Source of the DNA: a virus
Lineage: Duplodnaviria > Heunggongvirae > Uroviricota > Caudoviricetes
Length of the DNA: 10,144 nt
Direction: 5' to 3' (one strand)
IMG/VR virus record: IMGVR_UViG_3300029742_000228
Coordinates: 1-10,144 of that record
Of the stretch, positions 1 to 10,144 are shown one piece after another (the first letter of the stretch is position 1; the number at the start of each line of letters is the position of its first letter). The notes under the pieces were generated by a model, which was not told the origin of the DNA, made no database searches, and saw only the letters and a list, made by a program, of their open reading frames with translations. Made by a program: the position numbers and the translations under genes.

Positions 1-584
1 ATCATCCACCCAACTTAACTGAAACCAGGATGAAGTATATGCATATAAAGTTCACTTTGCCAAACGTCAGTATAAAAAACCACATAAAAAATAGGGTGTG
101 ATAAAAAATACCGTAACAATAAAGCAAAGGATTATAAATTCCGTTACAGTTACAAATGATACTCAAGAAACAATTCCTTAGGAAAAACTTATTTACAGCC
201 AATAAGTAAGACACTTATATGATATCAAGTTTTCATAAAACATAACTAGGCTAAATAGCTGCGCCTAATACCGCTACACTTTTGCCAGCCCATGTTTGCC
301 TCCGGGTATTGACCCCTTCTCTACGCAACTTCAGTTCCCACCACCAACTTTGCGGCAGCTTTGTAGGATCAATGTCTAAAAGAATAATGGTGACCGATAA
401 GAAAACGACTGAATAACTGCAAATTTTCGCTCAAAACCTTCCTGTCAGATCCATAGCGAATCAAGTGCTGAATGTCACAGTATCAAACAGAAAACAGTGA
501 CGATCTAACCCTTCAAGAATATTCTACGATTGTTCTGTTTAGGAAAAGCAAGGCGGGAAGTCGGGAGATAAGTCATTGATAAAG

Positions 585-646
585 TGGCGGAGAGAGGGGG
601 ATTTGAACCCCCGGTAGAGTTGCCCCTACTCCGGTTTTCGAGACCG
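585..646 (-). tRNA. Partial tRNA-Ser (anticodon CGA, serU-like): 3' portion only, from anticodon loop through variable arm, T-arm and acceptor CCA; 5' half absent. Interpreted as the att core duplicate at the prophage end.
   Basis: Reverse complement of 585-646 reads CGGTCTCGAAAACCGGAGTAGGGGCAACTCTACCGGGGGTTCAAATCCCCCTCTCTCCGCCA: anticodon loop CUCGAAA, long variable arm typical of tRNA-Ser, T-arm GGGGGTTCAAATCCCCC, 3' CCA. It matches my recollection of E. coli serU. The match stops at 646/647, so the D-arm and 5' acceptor strand are missing. Confidence 0.75.
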
Positions 647-1075
647 ATGATACAGAGTCGAAAAATCAAAGAGTTAAAAATTTCTCTTGGAATAAATGTC
701 TTAAAATTGTACACGAAAAATCAATGAATTACATAACATTAAAGAAGAATATTCCAAGCCTTCTTGAGGCTACCACCTGTTTTCAGGTGTCATTCAGACG
801 TGATTTGCCCCAGATTGGGAAAGCACGCTTTTTTCTCAGCTATCGCCCTCTTATTTTGCCGTTACATTTCTTTTTGCACTCTAATGATTAATTTACAATA
901 ATAATATCGGTAATTATTGAGTAATAATAAATTGATTATTGCAAATGTAATTTAATTCCATCTTCGCGTTATATTCCAATCTTTAATCTCCGCATGGAAC
1001 AAGTTGCATGCGTGACTATATTAAGACAACTTATAACCACCAAAACATTTGCTTTGCAAGCAAAAACAGTGACCA

Positions 1076-1104
1076 TTGACTCTAAGAAAATTCCGATCTA
1101 TTGT
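1076..1104 (+). promoter_or_regulatory. Candidate sigma70-like promoter: -35 TTGACT (1076-1081), 17-bp spacer, -10 TATTGT (1099-1104)
   Basis: Hexamers read directly from the sequence, located about 35 nt upstream of the small ORF at 1139. AT-rich context makes chance matches common. Confidence 0.2.
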
Positions 1105-1138
1105 TAGGATCATCAAAGTTACTTAACAGTATTCCGAA

Positions 1139-1240
1139 ATGAAAATACAAAGCAAGCTAATTGTCTTATTAAACATTATCATTGCATTTATATTATTTGA
1201 GCTTTTAGCTCAAAAATTTGGTTTGAGTACATTATTTTAA
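1139..1240 (+). CDS. Hypothetical 33-aa hydrophobic peptide (MKIQSKLIVLLNIIIAFILFELLAQKFGLSTLF); possible small membrane protein or type I toxin-like moron, or a chance ORF in AT-rich DNA
   Basis: ATG at 1139, TAA at 1238-1240. Lys-containing N-terminus followed by a roughly 18-residue hydrophobic stretch. No strong Shine-Dalgarno. Candidate promoter upstream and a plus-strand terminator downstream. Confidence 0.2.
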   Translation: MKIQSKLIVLLNIIIAFILFELLAQKFGLSTLF

Positions 1241-1389
1241 AGCAAGATAAACAATATCGGGCACTCTAGTTTTTATAATTAACAATTAAACGTCCATAAA
1301 ATGTTATTTACTTTTCTTCGCTATTGTCATATCTTAATATAGTGGCTTACGCCACTCTACTTTCATCACATTTTGTACGTTTATGTACT

Positions 1390-1422
1390 CGCCATGAAGC
1401 TCTTTCATGGCGATTTTTTATT
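1390..1422 (+). terminator. Rho-independent terminator-like hairpin (stem CGCCATGAA / TTCATGGCG, loop GCTCT) followed by ATTTTTTATT
   Basis: Perfect 9-bp stem at 1390-1398 and 1404-1412 followed by a T-run on the plus strand. The minus-strand side lacks a U-run, so it appears to be plus-oriented. Confidence 0.5.
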
Positions 1423-1505
1423 CTTAATCCAAGAACATACTCCCTACCTATAGCAAAATCACTTTTTTAACAAAAGAATAACGTATTTAGGTAATCATTA
1501 CGAAT

Positions 1506-1640
1506 TTACCCTATAGGTGCTACTGGCCATTCAATATCCGGTGCAGTTGATGTATCAACACGGTTCAGCAACACCCGATACTTTTTCCAGGCTTCCAGCA
1601 ACGAGTTTTCTTCCTCCGTTGCGATCTCCAGCTCAACAAC
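1506..1640 (-). pseudogene. tfa: 3' remnant of a tail fibre assembly (Tfa) gene: last ~45 codons only, with no start and no N-terminal domain
   Basis: Minus-strand translation gives ...[42 protein letters not shown], stop at 1506-1508. This matches the conserved C-terminus of lambda-family Tfa proteins as I recall it. It lies in the same frame as, and immediately after, the TGA stop of the upstream fibre ORF. Confidence 0.6.
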
Positions 1641-1685
1641 AGTCTGAACGTACCAGGAACAGCCTCCTTCAGGGCTTGAAGGATA

Positions 1686-3863
1686 TCAATGTTCGCTTCC
1701 TGTTAACTGCCGGACAAGTGCAACCAGTTCGCTTACCTGATTTTCCAGAGTGCTGATCCGGGTGCCTGCTGTTGCCAGATTTTGACGTAGCGTTGTGTTT
1801 TCCTCTTCCAGCGCGGTAACGCGATCATCTGTTTCACGGGCGACCTGAACAAGTAAACCTGTCACGGCAGAGTAGTCAACATTAAGATAGCGCGTTTCTT
1901 CGCGTAGCTCGTTGCCGTCAACGGTCGGACCTTGCAACTCTTCACCGTAATGAGTAAACGATCCCACAGCTTCTGGTATCGCCTCCATTACTTCCTGTGC
2001 AATAACGCCAGCATAAGGCATCCCGTTGTCCTTGAACGTGTAGGTGTATCCGTTCATTTTACGGATTGCTTTCGTCGCGTCGCTGATAACGAGAATATCG
2101 TCTTTAAGGTCGCGGTCTGATGACTGATTCAGCGTTGTGCAATTAATAGCGCCATTTACATCAAACAACTGGCCTGCTGACGTTTTTTGCGCATAAAACA
2201 GATACGCAGCAGACGTTCCAACCTCAAAAACGTTTTGTCGATCACTTGATCCCCATACTTTTGCGGCAAATGATAGTTCTGTATTACCTAAGTTCTGTAA
2301 AACAAAACGATTGCCAGTCCCTGATTGCTTTGTAAGGGTTAAATCAACAGTTGAGTTAACCTCATCCTTGTTGATAGTGAGCGCCTGCGCTTTAGCCCCG
2401 TTAACAGCACCTGTTTTGAGTTGAACCGCGCCGTCATTACCATTTAGCAGTATCTCAGCTCCGCTAAAGAAATTTTTTAGCGACAGCATCTTACTTACGC
2501 CGACTGATGAACCCAACGCCCACGCGAGAGAATTACCGGTGCTATCAAACCCACGTACAAAGCAATCCATTTTGCTATAGTCTGACGTGCTTCCAAGGAC
2601 ATCAATTCGCCCTCCGCCAGATTTTACCGGGTTAGATGTGGTTAATGACCTGACAGCAAGATCGGTAGATGCATTGAGATCGTCTACTGTTAATAGTCGT
2701 TTCCATCCCTTATCAACCCCAGCCTCAAAGCTTCTTGCCCAAAATTTGGAGTTGCGACCGGCGAATTGTGTGACGTAATTACCGCTAAATTGAGCATGGA
2801 ATCCGCCAACAACCATTGTTCCGTCAGGACCGCCTGCGCTCCCTGCTATTGGCTTAAACTTATTTACATTCTCTGTATGTTGAGTGCTCCAGTTTTGCCC
2901 TGTGTGAACAACCAATCCCTGATAAGAACTGAAGGTACCATCAAGGTTAAAATTAAAGAACTTACTGTTCCCTGAATTATTTATGTCCCTGACAACAATT
3001 TCACCAGAAGCGTTAGCGGCCCTTAGTTCAGTTTGATCGACAACCGGACCTCCTTCGGATTGTAATCTTTGAGAAACAAATGTTCTGTTTGAAGCGTCCG
3101 TACCGTACGCGGTGAAAGATTGTGTTGCTTTAATCTGACCATTGTTTACAAATATAGGAATAGTGACGGTAAAATTTTTGTCAAAACTCAGGCCATTTGT
3201 TAATGCAATCCTTTCTGACACCCCTTGTCTGAACGGAAGGTTGCTGTAGAAGCCATGTTCACCGCCAGTGAAGTCAAGAACATTTTTAACAAAGTTCTTG
3301 TCGTTATCCTCCGTTGACGTTGATACACCAAACTTATATCTAACCCCGTTGTCACCAATTACGTAGTCTTCTGTTGGAACCTTAACTTTTGCCTTGTAGC
3401 CAGTTTGCACAACGACAGGAAAAGCGCTTTTATGGATGTAGAAAGCTACATGCTGCGCATAATCTCTTTGCGACGCTTTAATGCAAAGTATCCCGAGTTC
3501 ATTTTTTTCATAGCAAACAAATGACCCGTAAGCCACATCGCGAACGTCACTCCAGCCACCGCATCGAAAATATCCACTAAATGTATTGCTATTAAGCGGG
3601 TCTGATGATAAACGTCCTGCTGTTTTTATATCAATAGGACATGTCAGGTTGCCGTAACCTTCCATTGCGGATGTGTCTATTATGACAGGGTAGTATTTGC
3701 CATCCACTGCACCACCAGGTGCATTAATGGTCATCGCTTTTGTTAACCCACCCTCAGGGATTTGCAAATTAGTTTTGGCGTCATCAAGGCTATTTGCGCC
3801 AGTGCCACCATGAGAAACATCAAGTGGTATCCATTTTTTTGTGTGTCGCTGTAACACCCCCAT
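1686..3863 (-). CDS. Tail fibre / tailspike distal (receptor-binding) protein with a C-terminal intramolecular chaperone auto-processing domain (Peptidase S74 type), 725 aa
   Basis: Long minus-strand ORF. The C-terminal ~144 aa contain S-D-R-D-L-K (Ser-Lys dyad spacing), GYTYTFKDNG, GVIAQEVMEAIPEAV and a terminal coiled-coil-like segment, the hallmark of self-cleaving fibre chaperone domains. The N-terminus contains a GGTGA-type fibre motif. This stretch looks more AT-rich than the J region. Confidence 0.8.
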   Translation of the reverse strand: MGVLQRHTKKWIPLDVSHGGTGANSLDDAKTNLQIPEGGLTKAMTINAPGGAVDGKYYPVIIDTSAMEGYGNLTCPIDIKTAGRLSSDPLNSNTFSGYFRCGGWSDVRDVAYGSFVCYEKNELGILCIKASQRDYAQHVAFYIHKSAFPVVVQTGYKAKVKVPTEDYVIGDNGVRYKFGVSTSTEDNDKNFVKNVLDFTGGEHGFYSNLPFRQGVSERIALTNGLSFDKNFTVTIPIFVNNGQIKATQSFTAYGTDASNRTFVSQRLQSEGGPVVDQTELRAANASGEIVVRDINNSGNSKFFNFNLDGTFSSYQGLVVHTGQNWSTQHTENVNKFKPIAGSAGGPDGTMVVGGFHAQFSGNYVTQFAGRNSKFWARSFEAGVDKGWKRLLTVDDLNASTDLAVRSLTTSNPVKSGGGRIDVLGSTSDYSKMDCFVRGFDSTGNSLAWALGSSVGVSKMLSLKNFFSGAEILLNGNDGAVQLKTGAVNGAKAQALTINKDEVNSTVDLTLTKQSGTGNRFVLQNLGNTELSFAAKVWGSSDRQNVFEVGTSAAYLFYAQKTSAGQLFDVNGAINCTTLNQSSDRDLKDDILVISDATKAIRKMNGYTYTFKDNGMPYAGVIAQEVMEAIPEAVGSFTHYGEELQGPTVDGNELREETRYLNVDYSAVTGLLVQVARETDDRVTALEEENTTLRQNLATAGTRISTLENQVSELVALVRQLTGSEH
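1689..2120 (-). other. Peptidase S74 / intramolecular chaperone domain of the fibre protein; predicted autocleavage at the Ser encoded at 2118-2120
   Basis: The motif SSDRDLKDDI is encoded at about 2090-2125 on the minus strand (tca tca gac cgc gac ctt). Everything downstream to the stop would be the released chaperone. Confidence 0.7.
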
Positions 3864-5287
3864 GTTGATCCGGTTAAACCCAGGCGCATGGATTTATCAT
3901 GGTTATATAACCATGTTTCGCTATTCCATTGGTCAAGACGGTCCACTTCATTTTTGCGAGCGTGGCGTGTCCATTGCGGGCCTGTTGTCGGACTCCAGCG
4001 ATAGGTATAAAGCGAGCGAGTAGTCCATCCCTGAAATACACCTGTATACGCTGGAGTTCCATCTACCTGACTAATAAACCCCGTAAGACTGCTTTCACCG
4101 GATGCAATAGACGGGAAACCTGTTGCATCAGCCATGATGCGCATAAAGCCAATATAACCTGATGGATTTCCTGAGATGTCAGAGCAACCACGCGGTGATG
4201 ATCCCAAACCGATGTTAGTACCAACAATACCCTGGGCCTGGTTGCGATAATTAAGTGCGTCCGCCGCAGATTTCGCCGCGTTTGTTTCACTGGATTTAGC
4301 ATTAGTTTCGCTGGCTTTAGCGTTTGTTTCGCTGCTCTTTGCTGCTGCCTCGCTATTTTTCGCGTTGGTTTCTGATTTTTTGGCTGCTGTCGCGGAGTTT
4401 GCCGATGCAGTTTGTGAGTCTGCTGCCGCCTGTGCGCTGTTATCCGCATTCGTCTCAGACGTTTTTGCGGCCTTCGCGGAATTTCCTGCCGCCGTTGCCG
4501 AGGAAGCTGCACTACTGGCACTTGATGATGCGTTCGTTTCTGATGATTTCGCTACCTCTTTTGAGGCCGCCGCATCCCGGGCTGAGGTGGCAGCTTCTGA
4601 CGCTTTCGTGGTCGCGGTGGATGCAGAAGTAGCTGCAGATTTTTGTGACACTGCAGCATTCGTTTCTGACGTTTTCGCCGCACCGGCACTGGTGGCCGCC
4701 GCGCTTTTTGAGGACTCTGCAGCGGCAGCACTTTTTGATGCTTCAGTGGCCTTTGTTGATGCCGTTCCTGCGCTGGAAGACGCTGACTGAGCCGACGACG
4801 CGGCCTGTCCGGCTGACGTGCTGGCTGCGCGTGCTGAGCCTGCAGCATCAGTCGCATGGGTTGCCGCCTCACGGGCTGATGTGCCGGCATCGCTGGCTGA
4901 CTTCTTCGCGGCTGCCGTGTTCTGTGCCACTGCGGACGCGTTACGCGCCACCTCTTCCACCATCAGTTCAAAGCGGCGCAGTGCCTCCGGACGGGCATCA
5001 TCCTCCGTCATGGCACCGAGAAAATCATTCAGCGTACCCGGTTGTGAGTCTTCATACACGGTGATGGTCCCGGCATGCGATGGCGGGAAGCCTTCCACCA
5101 TCAGAATAACGCTGTACTGACCGTACTCAACGTCCATGCTGTAACGCCCGGCTTCATCCGGATTTTCTGAGGCCACCGTGTTCACCACCACCGTGGTGCT
5201 GTTACGTTTTGCTTTCAGCTGGATTGTGCAGTTCTGTACCGGTTTACCTGCACCGTCTTTCAGTACACCTGAAATCTTTACTGCCAT
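3743..5287 (-). CDS. stf: Side tail fibre protein, N-terminal/shaft part: lambda Stf-like N-terminus, then an Ala/Ser/Thr-rich heptad repeat region, then a non-lambda segment. Its last ~40 codons overlap the next ORF out of frame.
   Basis: Translation begins MAVKISGVLKDGAGKPVQNCTIQLKAKRNSTTVVVNTVASENPDEAGRYSMDVEYGQYSV..., near-identical to my recollection of the lambda Stf N-terminus. ATG at 5285-5287, preceded by GGGGTG. The ORF track's start at 5293 is an upstream GTG. Confidence 0.8.
   Translation of the reverse strand: MAVKISGVLKDGAGKPVQNCTIQLKAKRNSTTVVVNTVASENPDEAGRYSMDVEYGQYSVILMVEGFPPSHAGTITVYEDSQPGTLNDFLGAMTEDDARPEALRRFELMVEEVARNASAVAQNTAAAKKSASDAGTSAREAATHATDAAGSARAASTSAGQAASSAQSASSSAGTASTKATEASKSAAAAESSKSAAATSAGAAKTSETNAAVSQKSAATSASTATTKASEAATSARDAAASKEVAKSSETNASSSASSAASSATAAGNSAKAAKTSETNADNSAQAAADSQTASANSATAAKKSETNAKNSEAAAKSSETNAKASETNAKSSETNAAKSAADALNYRNQAQGIVGTNIGLGSSPRGCSDISGNPSGYIGFMRIMADATGFPSIASGESSLTGFISQVDGTPAYTGVFQGWTTRSLYTYRWSPTTGPQWTRHARKNEVDRLDQWNSETWLYNHDKSMRLGLTGSTWGCYSDTQKNGYHLMFLMVALAQIALMTPKLICKSLRVG
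3898..3915. repeat. Perfect 18-bp palindrome CATGGTTATATAACCATG
   Basis: Read directly from the sequence. It lies 35 nt upstream of the ATG of the distal fibre ORF, inside the 3' part of the stf ORF, and causes the mirrored HGYITM peptides in the spurious ORFs on both strands. Confidence 0.9.
4253..4936 (-). repeat. Low-complexity tandem repeat region inside stf encoding Ala/Ser/Thr-rich 7-residue units (e.g. KSSETNA, KASETNA, KNSEAAA); about 21-nt DNA periodicity
   Basis: Repeated GCGAAAC(T/A)AA(T/C)GC-type units are visible on the plus strand around 4262-4400. The protein shows heptad periodicity across roughly residues 118-345. Confidence 0.6.
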
Positions 5288-5297
5288 ATTCACCCCA

Positions 5298-5325
5298 CAA
5301 AAAAGCCCGCCTGAACCGGCGGGCT
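5298..5325 (-). terminator. Rho-independent terminator downstream of lom (stem AGCCCGCC / GGCGGGCT, then U-run on the minus-strand transcript)
   Basis: Plus strand shows AAAAAAA then GCCCGCC-TGAACC-GGCGGGCT. On the minus strand this is a GC-rich hairpin followed by TTTTTT, sitting between the lom stop (5352) and the stf start (5287). Confidence 0.5.
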
Positions 5326-5351
5326 GTCATAACACTGTGTTACCTGGCTAA

Positions 5352-5951
5352 TCAGAACTTATAACCGACACCCACGATGAAACCGTCAGTGCGCCAGTCG
5401 CCACTGCCGGAGCCTTCATAAGCAATATCAATGGCCACGGATTCGGTCGGGTTAAACTGCACGCCAGCCCCCCACGCCAGAGACGTGTTGCTGCGGCGAC
5501 CGTCATCACTTCCGGTCAGCACTTCGTGCGTTTTCCCCTTGTTGTCAGTTACGCGGAGATAATCCCCGGAGAAAGTCGAAATACGGCTGTAAGCCACACC
5601 CGCCATCGCATACGCGCTGAACCATTCATTCACGCGCACAGACGGCCCCGCCATCACGCTGAACCAGCGGTTACGCACGGAATCTTCATGCCAGCGGGTA
5701 TCGCTGTAATGAGTCAGCTGGCGATTCTTGTCTTCTGCATAGCTGAATGACGTCACCATCCCCAGCGTGTCCGTAAACTCATAACGGTATTTCACGTTAA
5801 TCCCGTTAAGATCATCACTGCCGGGAACGTTGGTCCGGGCATGAAGATACCCCGCGCTCAGCGTGGACTGATGTTCAGACGCCCATGCAGGCGCACAGGA
5901 TACGGCCAGACAAATGGCTGCGGACAAAATGGCGGCATAAAGTTTACGCAT
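5352..5951 (-). CDS. lom: Lom, Ail/Lom-family outer membrane beta-barrel protein (lysogenic-conversion moron), 199 aa with signal peptide
   Basis: Translation MRKLYAAILSAAICLAVSCAPAWASEHQSTLSAGYLHA...DGFIVGVGYKF matches lambda Lom as I recall it, including the C-terminal aromatic residue typical of OMPs. Shine-Dalgarno GAGAGG upstream of the ATG at 5949-5951. Confidence 0.9.
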   Translation of the reverse strand: MRKLYAAILSAAICLAVSCAPAWASEHQSTLSAGYLHARTNVPGSDDLNGINVKYRYEFTDTLGMVTSFSYAEDKNRQLTHYSDTRWHEDSVRNRWFSVMAGPSVRVNEWFSAYAMAGVAYSRISTFSGDYLRVTDNKGKTHEVLTGSDDGRRSNTSLAWGAGVQFNPTESVAIDIAYEGSGSGDWRTDGFIVGVGYKF

Positions 5952-5974
5952 AATTACCTCTCGCTTTTCTGCAA

Positions 5975-5999
5975 TAAAAAAGGCGTCATTTCTGACGCC
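5975..5999 (-). terminator. Rho-independent terminator-like hairpin between the J stop and lom start (stem GGCGTCA / TGACGCC, loop TTTC, then U-run on minus strand)
   Basis: Plus strand reads AAAAAAA-GGCGTCA-TTTC-TGACGCC at 5975-5999. On the minus strand this is a hairpin followed by TTTTTT. Confidence 0.5.
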
Positions 6000-6017
6000 C
6001 GTTATGGGTTATAAAAT

Positions 6018-9412
<3,395 letters not shown>

Positions 9413-9472
9413 TCGTCATGCTCCATAAACGATAAAACCGCCCGGAGGCGGTTTCACATAAAACATTTTGCA

Positions 9473-10144
9473 TCAGCGACCAATCACCACAACCTGACCA
9501 CCATCCCCTTCGTCTGCCGTGCTGATCTCCTGAGAAACCACCCGCGACCCCACGCGCATTTCACCGTACAGAACAGGCAAAACATTGCCCTGGGCAACCA
9601 TGTTATCCAGTGAGGAGAAATAGGTGTTCTGCTTACCGTTATCCGTTGTCTGTGTACGGGGAGTTCTGGCTTTCGGTGCCAGCATCTGCGCCACACCACC
9701 GAGCACCATACTGGCACCGAGAGAAAACAGGATGCCGGTCATACCACCAGCCCCAATGGCTGCCCCCCATGCTGCAAGGGTGGCTCCGGCGGTAAAGAAT
9801 GATCCGGCAATGGCGGCAGCCCCCAGGACAATCTGGAATACGCCACCTGACTTGGCCCCGGCGACTCTGGGAACAATATGAATCACAGCGCCATCAGGCA
9901 GAGTCTCATGTAACTGCGCCGTTAACCCGGACGTGCTGACGTCCCGCCCGGCAATCCGTACCTGATACCAGCCGTCGCTCAGTTTCTGACGAAACGCCGG
10001 GAGCTGTGTGGCCAGTGCCCGGATGGCTTCAGCCCCCGTTTTCACACGAAGGTCGATGCGGCGACCAAATCGTTGTAAATCCCCGTAAAGGCAGATGCGC
10101 GCCATGCCCGGTGACGCCAGAGGGAGTGTGTGCGTCGCTGCCAT
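9473..10144 (-). CDS. I: Tail assembly protein I (lambda gpI-like), 223 aa, complete; start codon at the last bases of the window
   Basis: Translation MAATHTLPLASPGMARICLYGDLQRFGRRIDLRVKTGAEAIRALATQLPAF... matches lambda gpI as I recall it. Stop at 9473-9475, ATG at 10142-10144. Confidence 0.9.
   Translation of the reverse strand: MAATHTLPLASPGMARICLYGDLQRFGRRIDLRVKTGAEAIRALATQLPAFRQKLSDGWYQVRIAGRDVSTSGLTAQLHETLPDGAVIHIVPRVAGAKSGGVFQIVLGAAAIAGSFFTAGATLAAWGAAIGAGGMTGILFSLGASMVLGGVAQMLAPKARTPRTQTTDNGKQNTYFSSLDNMVAQGNVLPVLYGEMRVGSRVVSQEISTADEGDGGQVVVIGR

Follow-up and report, generated by a model that had tools for sequence, protein, structure and literature searches.

What, if anything, is encoded by a long AT-rich stretch of prophage DNA that carries no open reading frame (ORF) of ordinary size? 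The question is raised by positions 647-1505 of a 10,144-nt stretch of Caudoviricetes DNA (IMG/VR record IMGVR_UViG_3300029742_000228, positions 1-10,144; hereafter the window), located between the tail module and a sequence that an earlier note on this DNA had taken for an att core. That note, made from the letters alone, described the region as AT-rich and devoid of long ORFs, and this was borne out. The GC content is 26-37% (0.26-0.375 across 601-1500 against 0.45-0.52 in the tail-fibre DNA at 1501-2100, in 200-nt windows), and the ORF listing for both strands holds no frame of 60 aa or more wholly within 647-1505. At the left edge, a minus-strand GTG frame of 69 aa (505-714) extends into the region; it crosses a tRNA relic and is not a gene. 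The note further proposed a small transcription unit on the plus strand, i.e., a promoter TTGACT-17-TATTGT at 1076-1104, a 33-aa ORF at 1139-1240 and a rho-independent terminator at 1390-1422, and suggested that it could be a moron for a small, membrane-active and toxin-like peptide. A promoter scan, the ORF listing and a terminator scan combined with folding find the three elements where they had been placed. Comparison with related sequences leads us to conclude that about 963-1425 is probably a self-contained accessory cassette, or moron, at the late-operon end of a lambda-like Escherichia coli prophage, that it comprises a predicted promoter, a gene and a predicted intrinsic terminator (1389-1422) and points against the tail-fibre genes, and that the gene is a diverged paralogue of the host gene yncL.

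Coding potential of the 33-codon frame

The 33-codon ORF is very probably a real gene that has been missed by annotation, as judged from the way in which it has diverged. Allele C of the unit, found in sit-type prophages (L007 and L009), is about 75-80% identical to the window across the unit and keeps the ATG, the stop codon and all 33 codons despite 18 changes in the 102 nucleotides of the ORF. These changes are distributed 7/1/10 over the first, second and third codon positions, and result in eight synonymous and five conservative codon changes, i.e., a ratio of non-synonymous to synonymous substitution rates (dN/dS) of 0.09 by the Nei-Gojobori method (range of values obtained, 0.05-0.09). 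When 18 changes were placed at random, the combination of no stop codon and at most five amino-acid changes was obtained in 0.02% of the trials (p ~2e-4). Similarly, allele B carries three to four synonymous changes and one non-synonymous change. The non-coding flanks of the window (1038-1075 plus 1241-1298), which served as the reference for the Fisher tests of all allele C segments, differ from allele C at 46 of 103 positions (~45%), with insertions and deletions, and the ORF is significantly less diverged than this (p=4e-5). The leader between promoter and ORF (1105-1138) differs at 10 of 34 positions, which is not significantly different from the flanks.

Among 38 distinct variants the ORF was intact in 37, and two apparent changes in its length were gap artefacts at the stop codon. 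Neighbouring small frames, in contrast, were often broken, the one at 994-1107 being intact in 19 and that at 1324-1470 in 11 of the 38 variants. Taken as a signature of selection, the pattern of change indicates that the 33-codon frame is under purifying selection. The earlier note had asked for conservation of the frame in relatives, including the balance of synonymous and non-synonymous changes, and had named disrupted frames in relatives as the outcome that would speak against a gene; conservation is what was found, and disruption is rare. A nonsense allele with a stop at Gln4 (the ydfJ-type copy at L005 5213-5314) was found in 3 of 789 E. coli genomes by a search spanning the single-nucleotide polymorphism, which rules it out as a common allele, and frameshifted 43-aa forms (P0002, P0019) that diverge around a CAAAAATTTGG run occur in a few metagenomic and SRA assemblies.

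The frames at 724-891, 994-1107 and 1324-1470 were also considered as genes and were rejected, as they are not conserved. For two of them, which lie on the plus strand, phage records list a hypothetical protein (994-1107 in PhiR70_1 and 724-891 in ev099). In half of the distinct variants the frame at 994-1107 has lost its ATG or gained stops, and both annotations are probably artefacts.

The 33-codon ORF itself has left few traces in the databases. There was no annotated feature under it in about 100 RefSeq rows inspected, and nothing in the three phage records examined. Among 15 billion proteins the peptide has been predicted about a dozen times, mostly at contig ends, and has never been named; a HMMER scan of 1.84 billion representative proteins returned the peptide itself and one frameshifted form only. 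A tblastn search of phage and plasmid collections with the peptide gave no match, but three phages do encode it, and the low-complexity filter of BLAST probably masked the query, so that the result is no true negative. No PHROGs family matched it, and no report on the peptide, its DNA or a 'YncL-like', 'YncL homolog' or 'YncL paralog' protein of this kind was found in the literature. Its absence from K-12 explains how the gene came to be overlooked.

Relationship to YncL

The peptide resembles YncL, a 'stress response membrane protein' of the host. NCBIfam model NF000537 (YncL) (30 positions) matches residues 1-28 with E=1.3e-5 and 25 bits, and the three alleles give E values of 1.3e-5, 3.7e-5 and 7.5e-5 (22-25 bits). 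In a direct BLASTP comparison with K-12 YncL (b4598, 31 aa, MNVSSRTVVLINFFAAVGLFTLISMRFGWFI) the alignment is ungapped from Met1, with 11 identities in 28 positions (39%) and E=2e-7. The positions common to both are Met1, Ser5, a basic residue at 6, Val9-Leu10, Asn12 in the middle of the helix, Ala16, Leu19-Phe20, Leu22 and a basic-Phe-Gly motif at 26-28. The most hydrophobic 19-aa segment of the peptide, residues 7-25, has a hydropathy of 2.54. A hydrophobic peptide may match another by composition, but composition does not explain the match to YncL, since the Smith-Waterman score of 60 was reached by none of 20,000 composition-matched shuffles (20 +/- 4, maximum 45). In agreement with this, a hidden Markov model (HMM) built from 17 canonical orthologues (Escherichia, Citrobacter, Superficieibacter and Intestinirhabdus) gives the alleles 21-23 bits and the best of 20,000 shuffles 14.8 bits. 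A Pfam family named YncL, PF28073, matches the peptide as well as proteins named YncL at NCBI; these are precomputed hits, which were reached with the frameshifted 43-aa variant and with a fusion of YncL and the peptide as queries.

The peptide gene lies between a remnant of the tail-fibre-assembly gene tfa and prophage cargo, and not in the K-12 context patD-yncL-ortT. Canonical yncL is near-universal in E. coli, and the prophage gene is therefore very probably a second copy. Sequence comparison thus makes it likely, with good confidence, that we are dealing with a prophage-carried, diverged paralogue of YncL.

A separate AT-rich and unrelated phage contig (UViG_2225789004_000194; L162 3428-3544) contains an ORF of 32 or 38 aa, MKKAITLILMNIISALFLFFLIIQNFGFWGHE, with some likeness to the YncL motif. 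The search pattern itself selected this ORF, which reaches only E=0.03 with the YncL model, and no relationship is claimed for it.

Predicted promoter and terminator

The predicted transcription start is near 1111. The -35 hexamer of the predicted promoter is unchanged in 37 of the 38 distinct variants, and the -10 hexamer reads TATCGT in allele C. Over its entire length the promoter differs from allele C at 3 of 29 positions, significantly fewer than in the flanks (p=5e-4). Conservation of this predicted element inside the deeply diverged core of allele C is thus supported by the sequence comparison. The -10 context is C-TATTGT here and C-TATACA before K-12 yncL. In Salmonella, yncL (STM14_1932) lies in the 'sRNA' STnc1110 and is sigma-S dependent (PMC5437024). 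From the shared C-TAT and the sigma-S dependence in Salmonella it is plausible that the prophage gene is expressed in stationary phase or under stress. Readings of the conserved GGAACAAGTTGCAT motif as a sigma-54, sigma-E or sigma-32 site were abandoned, as the spacing did not fit by eye, and no claim is made for them.

The terminator consists of a stem-loop at 1389-1413 (10 bp, with a loop of 3-5 nt depending on the tool) followed by TTTTTTATTC, with a T run at 1414-1419 and then ATTCTT. Homology between lineages stops just past it.

Distribution and mosaicism of the unit

The unit (window 928/963-1500) is present in 827 of 5,426 complete E. coli genomes (~15%), the 3' part by itself being likewise found in 827 genomes, and in 48 IMG/VR viral contigs. 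One carrier is E. coli IAI1 (NC_011741), in which 853179-853419 matches window 1060-1300 without a difference. The unit moves as one cassette beside tfa in four prophage contexts: its left neighbours are of four kinds, namely the serU relic (27 loci), the ydfJ attachment site (22 loci), sitABCD (sitD type; 5 loci) and an MFS transporter with sit (4 loci). On the other side, the convergent C-terminal end of tfa is found 260-310 nt past the ORF stop in 62 of the 64 loci with enough sequence. The unit is missing from related phages with common tail-fibre DNA, e.g., Ayreon and mEp460, and its GC content (0.26-0.32) is well below that of the neighbouring tail genes (0.45-0.52). The upstream part (963-1075) has no significant fold on either strand.

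The alleles are themselves mosaic. In allele C the left part (963-1037) differs from the ydfJ-type lineage at 1 of 75 positions and the right flank (1426-1500) from allele B at 3 of 74, while the core (1038-1298) is deeply diverged; allele C is therefore a recombinant. Recent recombination accounts for the close match of allele C to the ydfJ type over 963-1037, and the segment table accordingly ruled out the upstream island 979-1038 as a constrained element.

Weighing the evidence

Several observations weigh against reading the unit as a cassette with a translated YncL paralogue. Counted as patterns, the signals are at chance level: five promoter-like sites were seen by a consensus scan in 1-2000 where shuffled sequence leads one to expect 5.4, and two terminator-like sites where 1.4 are expected. 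The verdict therefore rests on comparison with related sequences, and it is this comparison, not the pattern counts, that makes the unit at about 963-1425 real. The comparison has its own limits. The three allele groups known are all from E. coli prophages, so that the selection signal rests on few independent lineages, and the most informative contrast comes from a recombinant allele. A search of 185,579 species-representative genomes gave no match to the prophage-type peptide, and a scan of the same representatives with a relaxed pattern returned canonical yncL orthologues and chance frames only. No allele has a Shine-Dalgarno sequence before the ATG, the best duplex with the anti-Shine-Dalgarno sequence having -0.4 or -2.8 kcal/mol in the alleles against -7.2 for K-12 yncL, and translation may therefore be weak. 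The nonsense allele and the frameshifted forms described above point the same way, and a literature search found no transcript, ribosome-footprint, peptide or phenotype data. As for the family assignment, the alleles score 22.5-25 bits with NF000537, below the curated equivalog cut-off of 35 and far from the 67-69 bits of canonical YncL, and the PF28073 match is weak. The canonical tail GWF[IVA] is replaced by GLSTLF, and outside the coding part the nucleotide sequence is not homologous to the yncL locus. The score below the cut-off, the LSTLF tail, the prophage locus and the missing flanking homology are the reasons for regarding the gene as a diverged paralogue and not as YncL itself.

It is conceivable that the functional product is RNA and not protein, i.e., a small RNA (sRNA) of about 85-135 nt that ends at 1389-1422 and is made from a weak promoter of its own or by cleavage of the 3' untranslated region (3' UTR), or else a dual-function transcript in which the peptide is secondary. 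We consider this unlikely, even though the 3' UTR has features that invite it. A hairpin (1341-1356), an unpaired U-rich linker of 18 nt (1357-1374), a small hairpin (1375-1388) and the terminator give the usual shape of a base-pairing sRNA, and the fold of 1330-1424 has z=-6.4. The stretch 1299-1425 differs from allele C at 14 of 127 positions, far fewer than the flanks (p=9e-9), but this could be another recombination tract like those at 963-1037 and 1426-1500. Within the stems all changes are one-sided switches between G-C, G-U and A-U that keep pairing on the plus strand only, pair 1303/1369 taking each of the three forms depending on the lineage; still, covariation in the 3' UTR is not significant, being equalled by 165 of 500 shuffles, because there is too little variation. 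A perfect TATAAT is found at 1274-1279, yet no usable -35 hexamer belongs to it, and the U run is reduced to UUUCUU in alleles B and C, which is poor for Hfq binding as well as for termination. At gathering thresholds there is no Rfam family in the window; permissive searches give weak, full-length and terminator-driven matches of the 3' UTR to MicC, Aar and Esr41, the best of them (MicC) with 22.8 bits against 90 and thus far under threshold. In Salmonella, the yncL transcript was initially listed as an sRNA, which lends some credit to such a product. An argument against a product of RNA alone is the codon-position pattern of change in the ORF, for which such a product gives no explanation.

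It is less probable still that the locus is a type I toxin-antitoxin or abortive-infection module, in which an antisense or divergent small RNA would keep a membrane toxin peptide under control. A mobile element with a gene for a small hydrophobic peptide would fit, as would the loss of viability and the membrane depolarisation that follow production of YncL-family peptides (PMC12542507), and the missing Shine-Dalgarno sequence would hold translation low. A promoter-like ATGACA-18-TAACAT on the minus strand (1330-1301) might give rise to an RNA complementary to the 3' UTR and the end of the ORF, but allele C has lost its -35 hexamer, the minus strand shows no terminator, and no conserved antisense promoter-terminator unit was found. 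A 25-nt inverted repeat (1002-1026/1332-1356) was considered as hok-like fold-back pairing and rejected, as alleles B and C have not retained the complementarity. With a leader that is short and without strong structure the unit differs from typical type I toxin mRNAs, none of the PADLOC defence models matches, and Smith-Waterman scores of the peptide against TisB, ShoB, IbsC, LdrD, ZorO and HokB are 18-35, i.e., below the best shuffle scored against YncL (45) and well below the peptide's score against YncL (60). Chromosomal YncL is not known to have an antitoxin either. Of the earlier suggestion of a toxin-like moron, the small-protein moron stands through the conservation of coding frame and promoter, membrane activity is argued through the homology to YncL, and 'toxin' in the toxin-antitoxin sense is unsupported because no antisense or antitoxin partner was found. 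Finally, the ORF could be a chance frame in AT-rich regulatory or att-arm DNA, its conservation being the result of recent descent and phage recombination. Hydrophobic frames and hexamers like those of promoters do arise in AT-rich DNA as often as they were found in this region, most copies exceed 95% identity and therefore hold little information, phage mosaicism has been seen to make islands of near-identity, there is no ribosome-binding site, and the adjoining 647-927 is best read as att-arm DNA. Chance is nevertheless disfavoured, and we regard it as highly improbable: allele C keeps frame, start and stop with its changes concentrated at third positions (p ~2e-4) in surroundings that are 45% different and contain insertions and deletions, and the in-register match to a curated family (E=1e-5) is not reached by any of 20,000 composition-matched shuffles.

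A possible mechanism

If the cassette with its YncL paralogue works as its parts suggest, a lysogen would transcribe an mRNA of about 310 nt (~1111-1422) against the silent late operon, possibly in dependence on stationary phase or stress, and the terminator would keep this mRNA from running antisense into tfa. The peptide would insert in the inner membrane and may oligomerise through the invariant Asn12, an asparagine in the middle of a transmembrane helix being a likely oligomerisation contact. By analogy with YncL and YohP it would then lower the membrane potential sublethally, and the host would shift to a low-metabolism, stress-tolerant state. Production of YncL or YohP leads to sublethal depolarisation, a phage-shock response, less protein synthesis and nucleoid condensation, and yncL is induced by heat shock and by minimal medium (PMC12542507); YncL is in addition a candidate substrate of RseP (PMC10470546). 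The data on YncL support membrane activity of the prophage peptide by homology, and sublethal depolarisation with stress tolerance as its consequence is put forward tentatively, at somewhat less than even confidence. It is tempting to speculate further that the unit is a lysogenic-conversion device with two products, the peptide depolarising the lysogen, and thereby blocking entry of superinfecting DNA or aiding tolerance to antibiotics or stress, and the 3' UTR being freed as an sRNA that retunes the host. This is a long shot; if true, a dual-function RNA originating from a host stress gene would be carried by the prophage and escape present-day annotation.

The prophage setting

A prophage of E. 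coli TUM1887 ends in a sequence identical to the window, and the order there is bioA-ybhB, insertion sequence remnants, an AraC-family regulator gene, the 647-1505 region, a truncated tfa and a tail fibre with an S74 peptidase. The DNA lies next to bio and represents the right-hand end of a prophage integrated at the lambda attachment site, with the unit between tfa and the cargo/att end, and the earlier placement in the b region is correct. The free phages ev099, mEp332 and PhiR70_1 contain this DNA at 98-99% identity, with the integrase gene further left, and hold the serU relic internally. Features of the region are collected in Table 1.

Table 1. Features of the unit and of the adjoining prophage DNA, in window coordinates.
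Feature	Position	Strand	Basis and remarks
Captured host DNA, yodB-serU intergenic region	307-584		K-12 alignment
3' 62 nt of serU tRNA-Ser(CGA), relic att junction of a serU-integrating prophage	585-646	minus	K-12 serU alignment
serU-type prophage end segment, probably att arm	647-927	no strand	repeats; recurrence at serU-site ends
Upstream part of the unit	963-1075	plus	alignments; left homology boundary ~928-963 by lineage
Predicted sigma-70/sigma-S-type promoter, TTGACT-17-TATTGT, C directly before the -10	1076-1104	plus	scan; conservation
yncL-like gene, predicted 33-aa single-pass membrane peptide MKIQSKLIVLLNIIIAFILFELLAQKFGLSTLF	1139-1240	plus	ORF; YncL homology; dN/dS; intact frames; hydropathy
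3' UTR	1241-1424	plus	fold; scan
C-terminal remnant of tfa (tail-fibre assembly), truncated	1506-1637	minus	RefSeq annotation of TUM1887; right boundary, convergent with the unit

The left edge of the region needs one correction. The 'att core' assumed there is a relic serU junction and not the attachment site of the present prophage: 340 bp of the window (307-646) correspond to K-12 NC_000913 2043190-2043529 with 97% identity. ARAGORN finds no complete tRNA in the window, and Rfam gives a sub-threshold tmRNA/tRNA-like match at 596-613. Sequence of the 307-646 type is contiguous at a real serU-site prophage junction in strain LR14 (L013). It follows from the junction match that 647-1505 is the terminal segment of a serU-integrating phage that was captured together with the 340 bp of host DNA, and this segment now lies inside the b region of a lambda-site phage. 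The host DNA has the look of a fossil, left when an ancestor integrated at serU excised imprecisely or recombined.

In agreement with this, 647-927 is probably the att-proximal arm of a serU-integrating phage, carried as a relic. It contains no conserved ORF, and its part 660-841 recurs at serU-site prophage ends in genomes that lack the YncL-like unit, the homology to other genomes stopping at 841, inside the frame at 724-891. Beside the serU core there are two 18-nt direct repeats at 659-676 and 714-731 (CGAAAAATCAAAGAGTTA and an 89%-identical copy, 55 nt apart) and an imperfect 20-nt inverted repeat at 686-705/739-758, which may be integrase arm-type or IHF sites of a serU-type attP arm.

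Further observations concern the neighbouring genes. The AraC-family regulator gene (L001 1698-2441, left of window position 1) is prophage cargo and is transcribed away from the window, and its AT-rich upstream region of about 560 nt fills positions 1-560. On the minus strand, the tail-fibre ORF at 1686-3863 ends in an S74 self-cleaving chaperone peptidase, and RefSeq calls a frameshift in it in the identical genome. A second 3' relic of tfa is found on the other side of the unit in ydfJ-type and sit-type prophages (L005 4158-4233, L009 3744-3844), and the tfa relics look like scars of repeated exchange of tail-fibre cassettes. The Rfam model IS009 (RF02111) matches 1546-1746 on the minus strand over its full length, with 93 bits against a gathering threshold of 117 and E=1.7e-21. 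This match covers the tfa remnant and the 3' end of the tail-fibre gene and probably reflects DNA homology to a cryptic-prophage tfa region and not an RNA gene.

Implications

Small membrane proteins are routinely missed by annotation, and the YncL-like gene would be such a case in 827 of 5,426 genomes. What is new is a mobile member of a known small-protein family that is common in E. coli and left unnamed by annotation, and with it the host stress-response family YncL would have a mobile, phage-carried branch. Pipelines would be able to name the gene if the curated YncL models were made wider or a sister model were created. As a connection of YncL with sublethal depolarisation and metabolic silencing was made only recently, a prophage copy with its own promoter may be regarded as a natural experiment on stress tolerance, persistence and phage exclusion. 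The gene is a concrete example, and one that is easily tested, of a host stress peptide with a prophage-borne copy, and K-12, which is without the gene, allows a clean isogenic comparison with lysogens of mEp332 or PhiR70_1.

Comparison with known systems

The closest known system is YncL itself. Like the prophage peptide it has a short basic N-terminus, one transmembrane helix and a short tail, the sizes are nearly equal (31 and 33 aa), and it is made from a short, sRNA-like transcript unit of its own, as predicted for the prophage gene. The two differ in that K-12 yncL has the Shine-Dalgarno sequence AAGGTGG, which the prophage gene lacks. YohP and other small stress-induced proteins of the inner membrane, which are single-helix peptides of 27-33 aa, depolarise the membrane and silence metabolism (PMC12542507), and this was adopted as the working model for the prophage peptide. 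YohP is however chromosomal and unrelated in sequence, its Smith-Waterman score to the prophage peptide being 25 and within the range of the shuffles. With the type I toxins (Hok, TisB, ShoB, Ibs, Ldr and ZorO) the prophage peptide has in common a small size, hydrophobicity, a presumed membrane activity, a place on a mobile element and a translation that is probably low, but the prophage gene has neither a partner antisense RNA nor a long structured leader, nor does its product resemble them in sequence.

As a unit, the cassette is best compared with the phage morons (lambda bor and lom, and the HK97/HK022 concept), i.e., independent promoter-gene-terminator units that are inserted in a late region and active in the prophage. 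For the cassette, a promoter and a terminator of its own are predicted; its base composition is atypical, it lies where the late operon ends, some related phages have it and others do not, and its orientation permits expression while the late genes are silent. Its product is far smaller than those of the classic morons and is not in PHROGs. On its sequence features the cassette fits the definition of a phage moron, which would be expressed in the lysogen.

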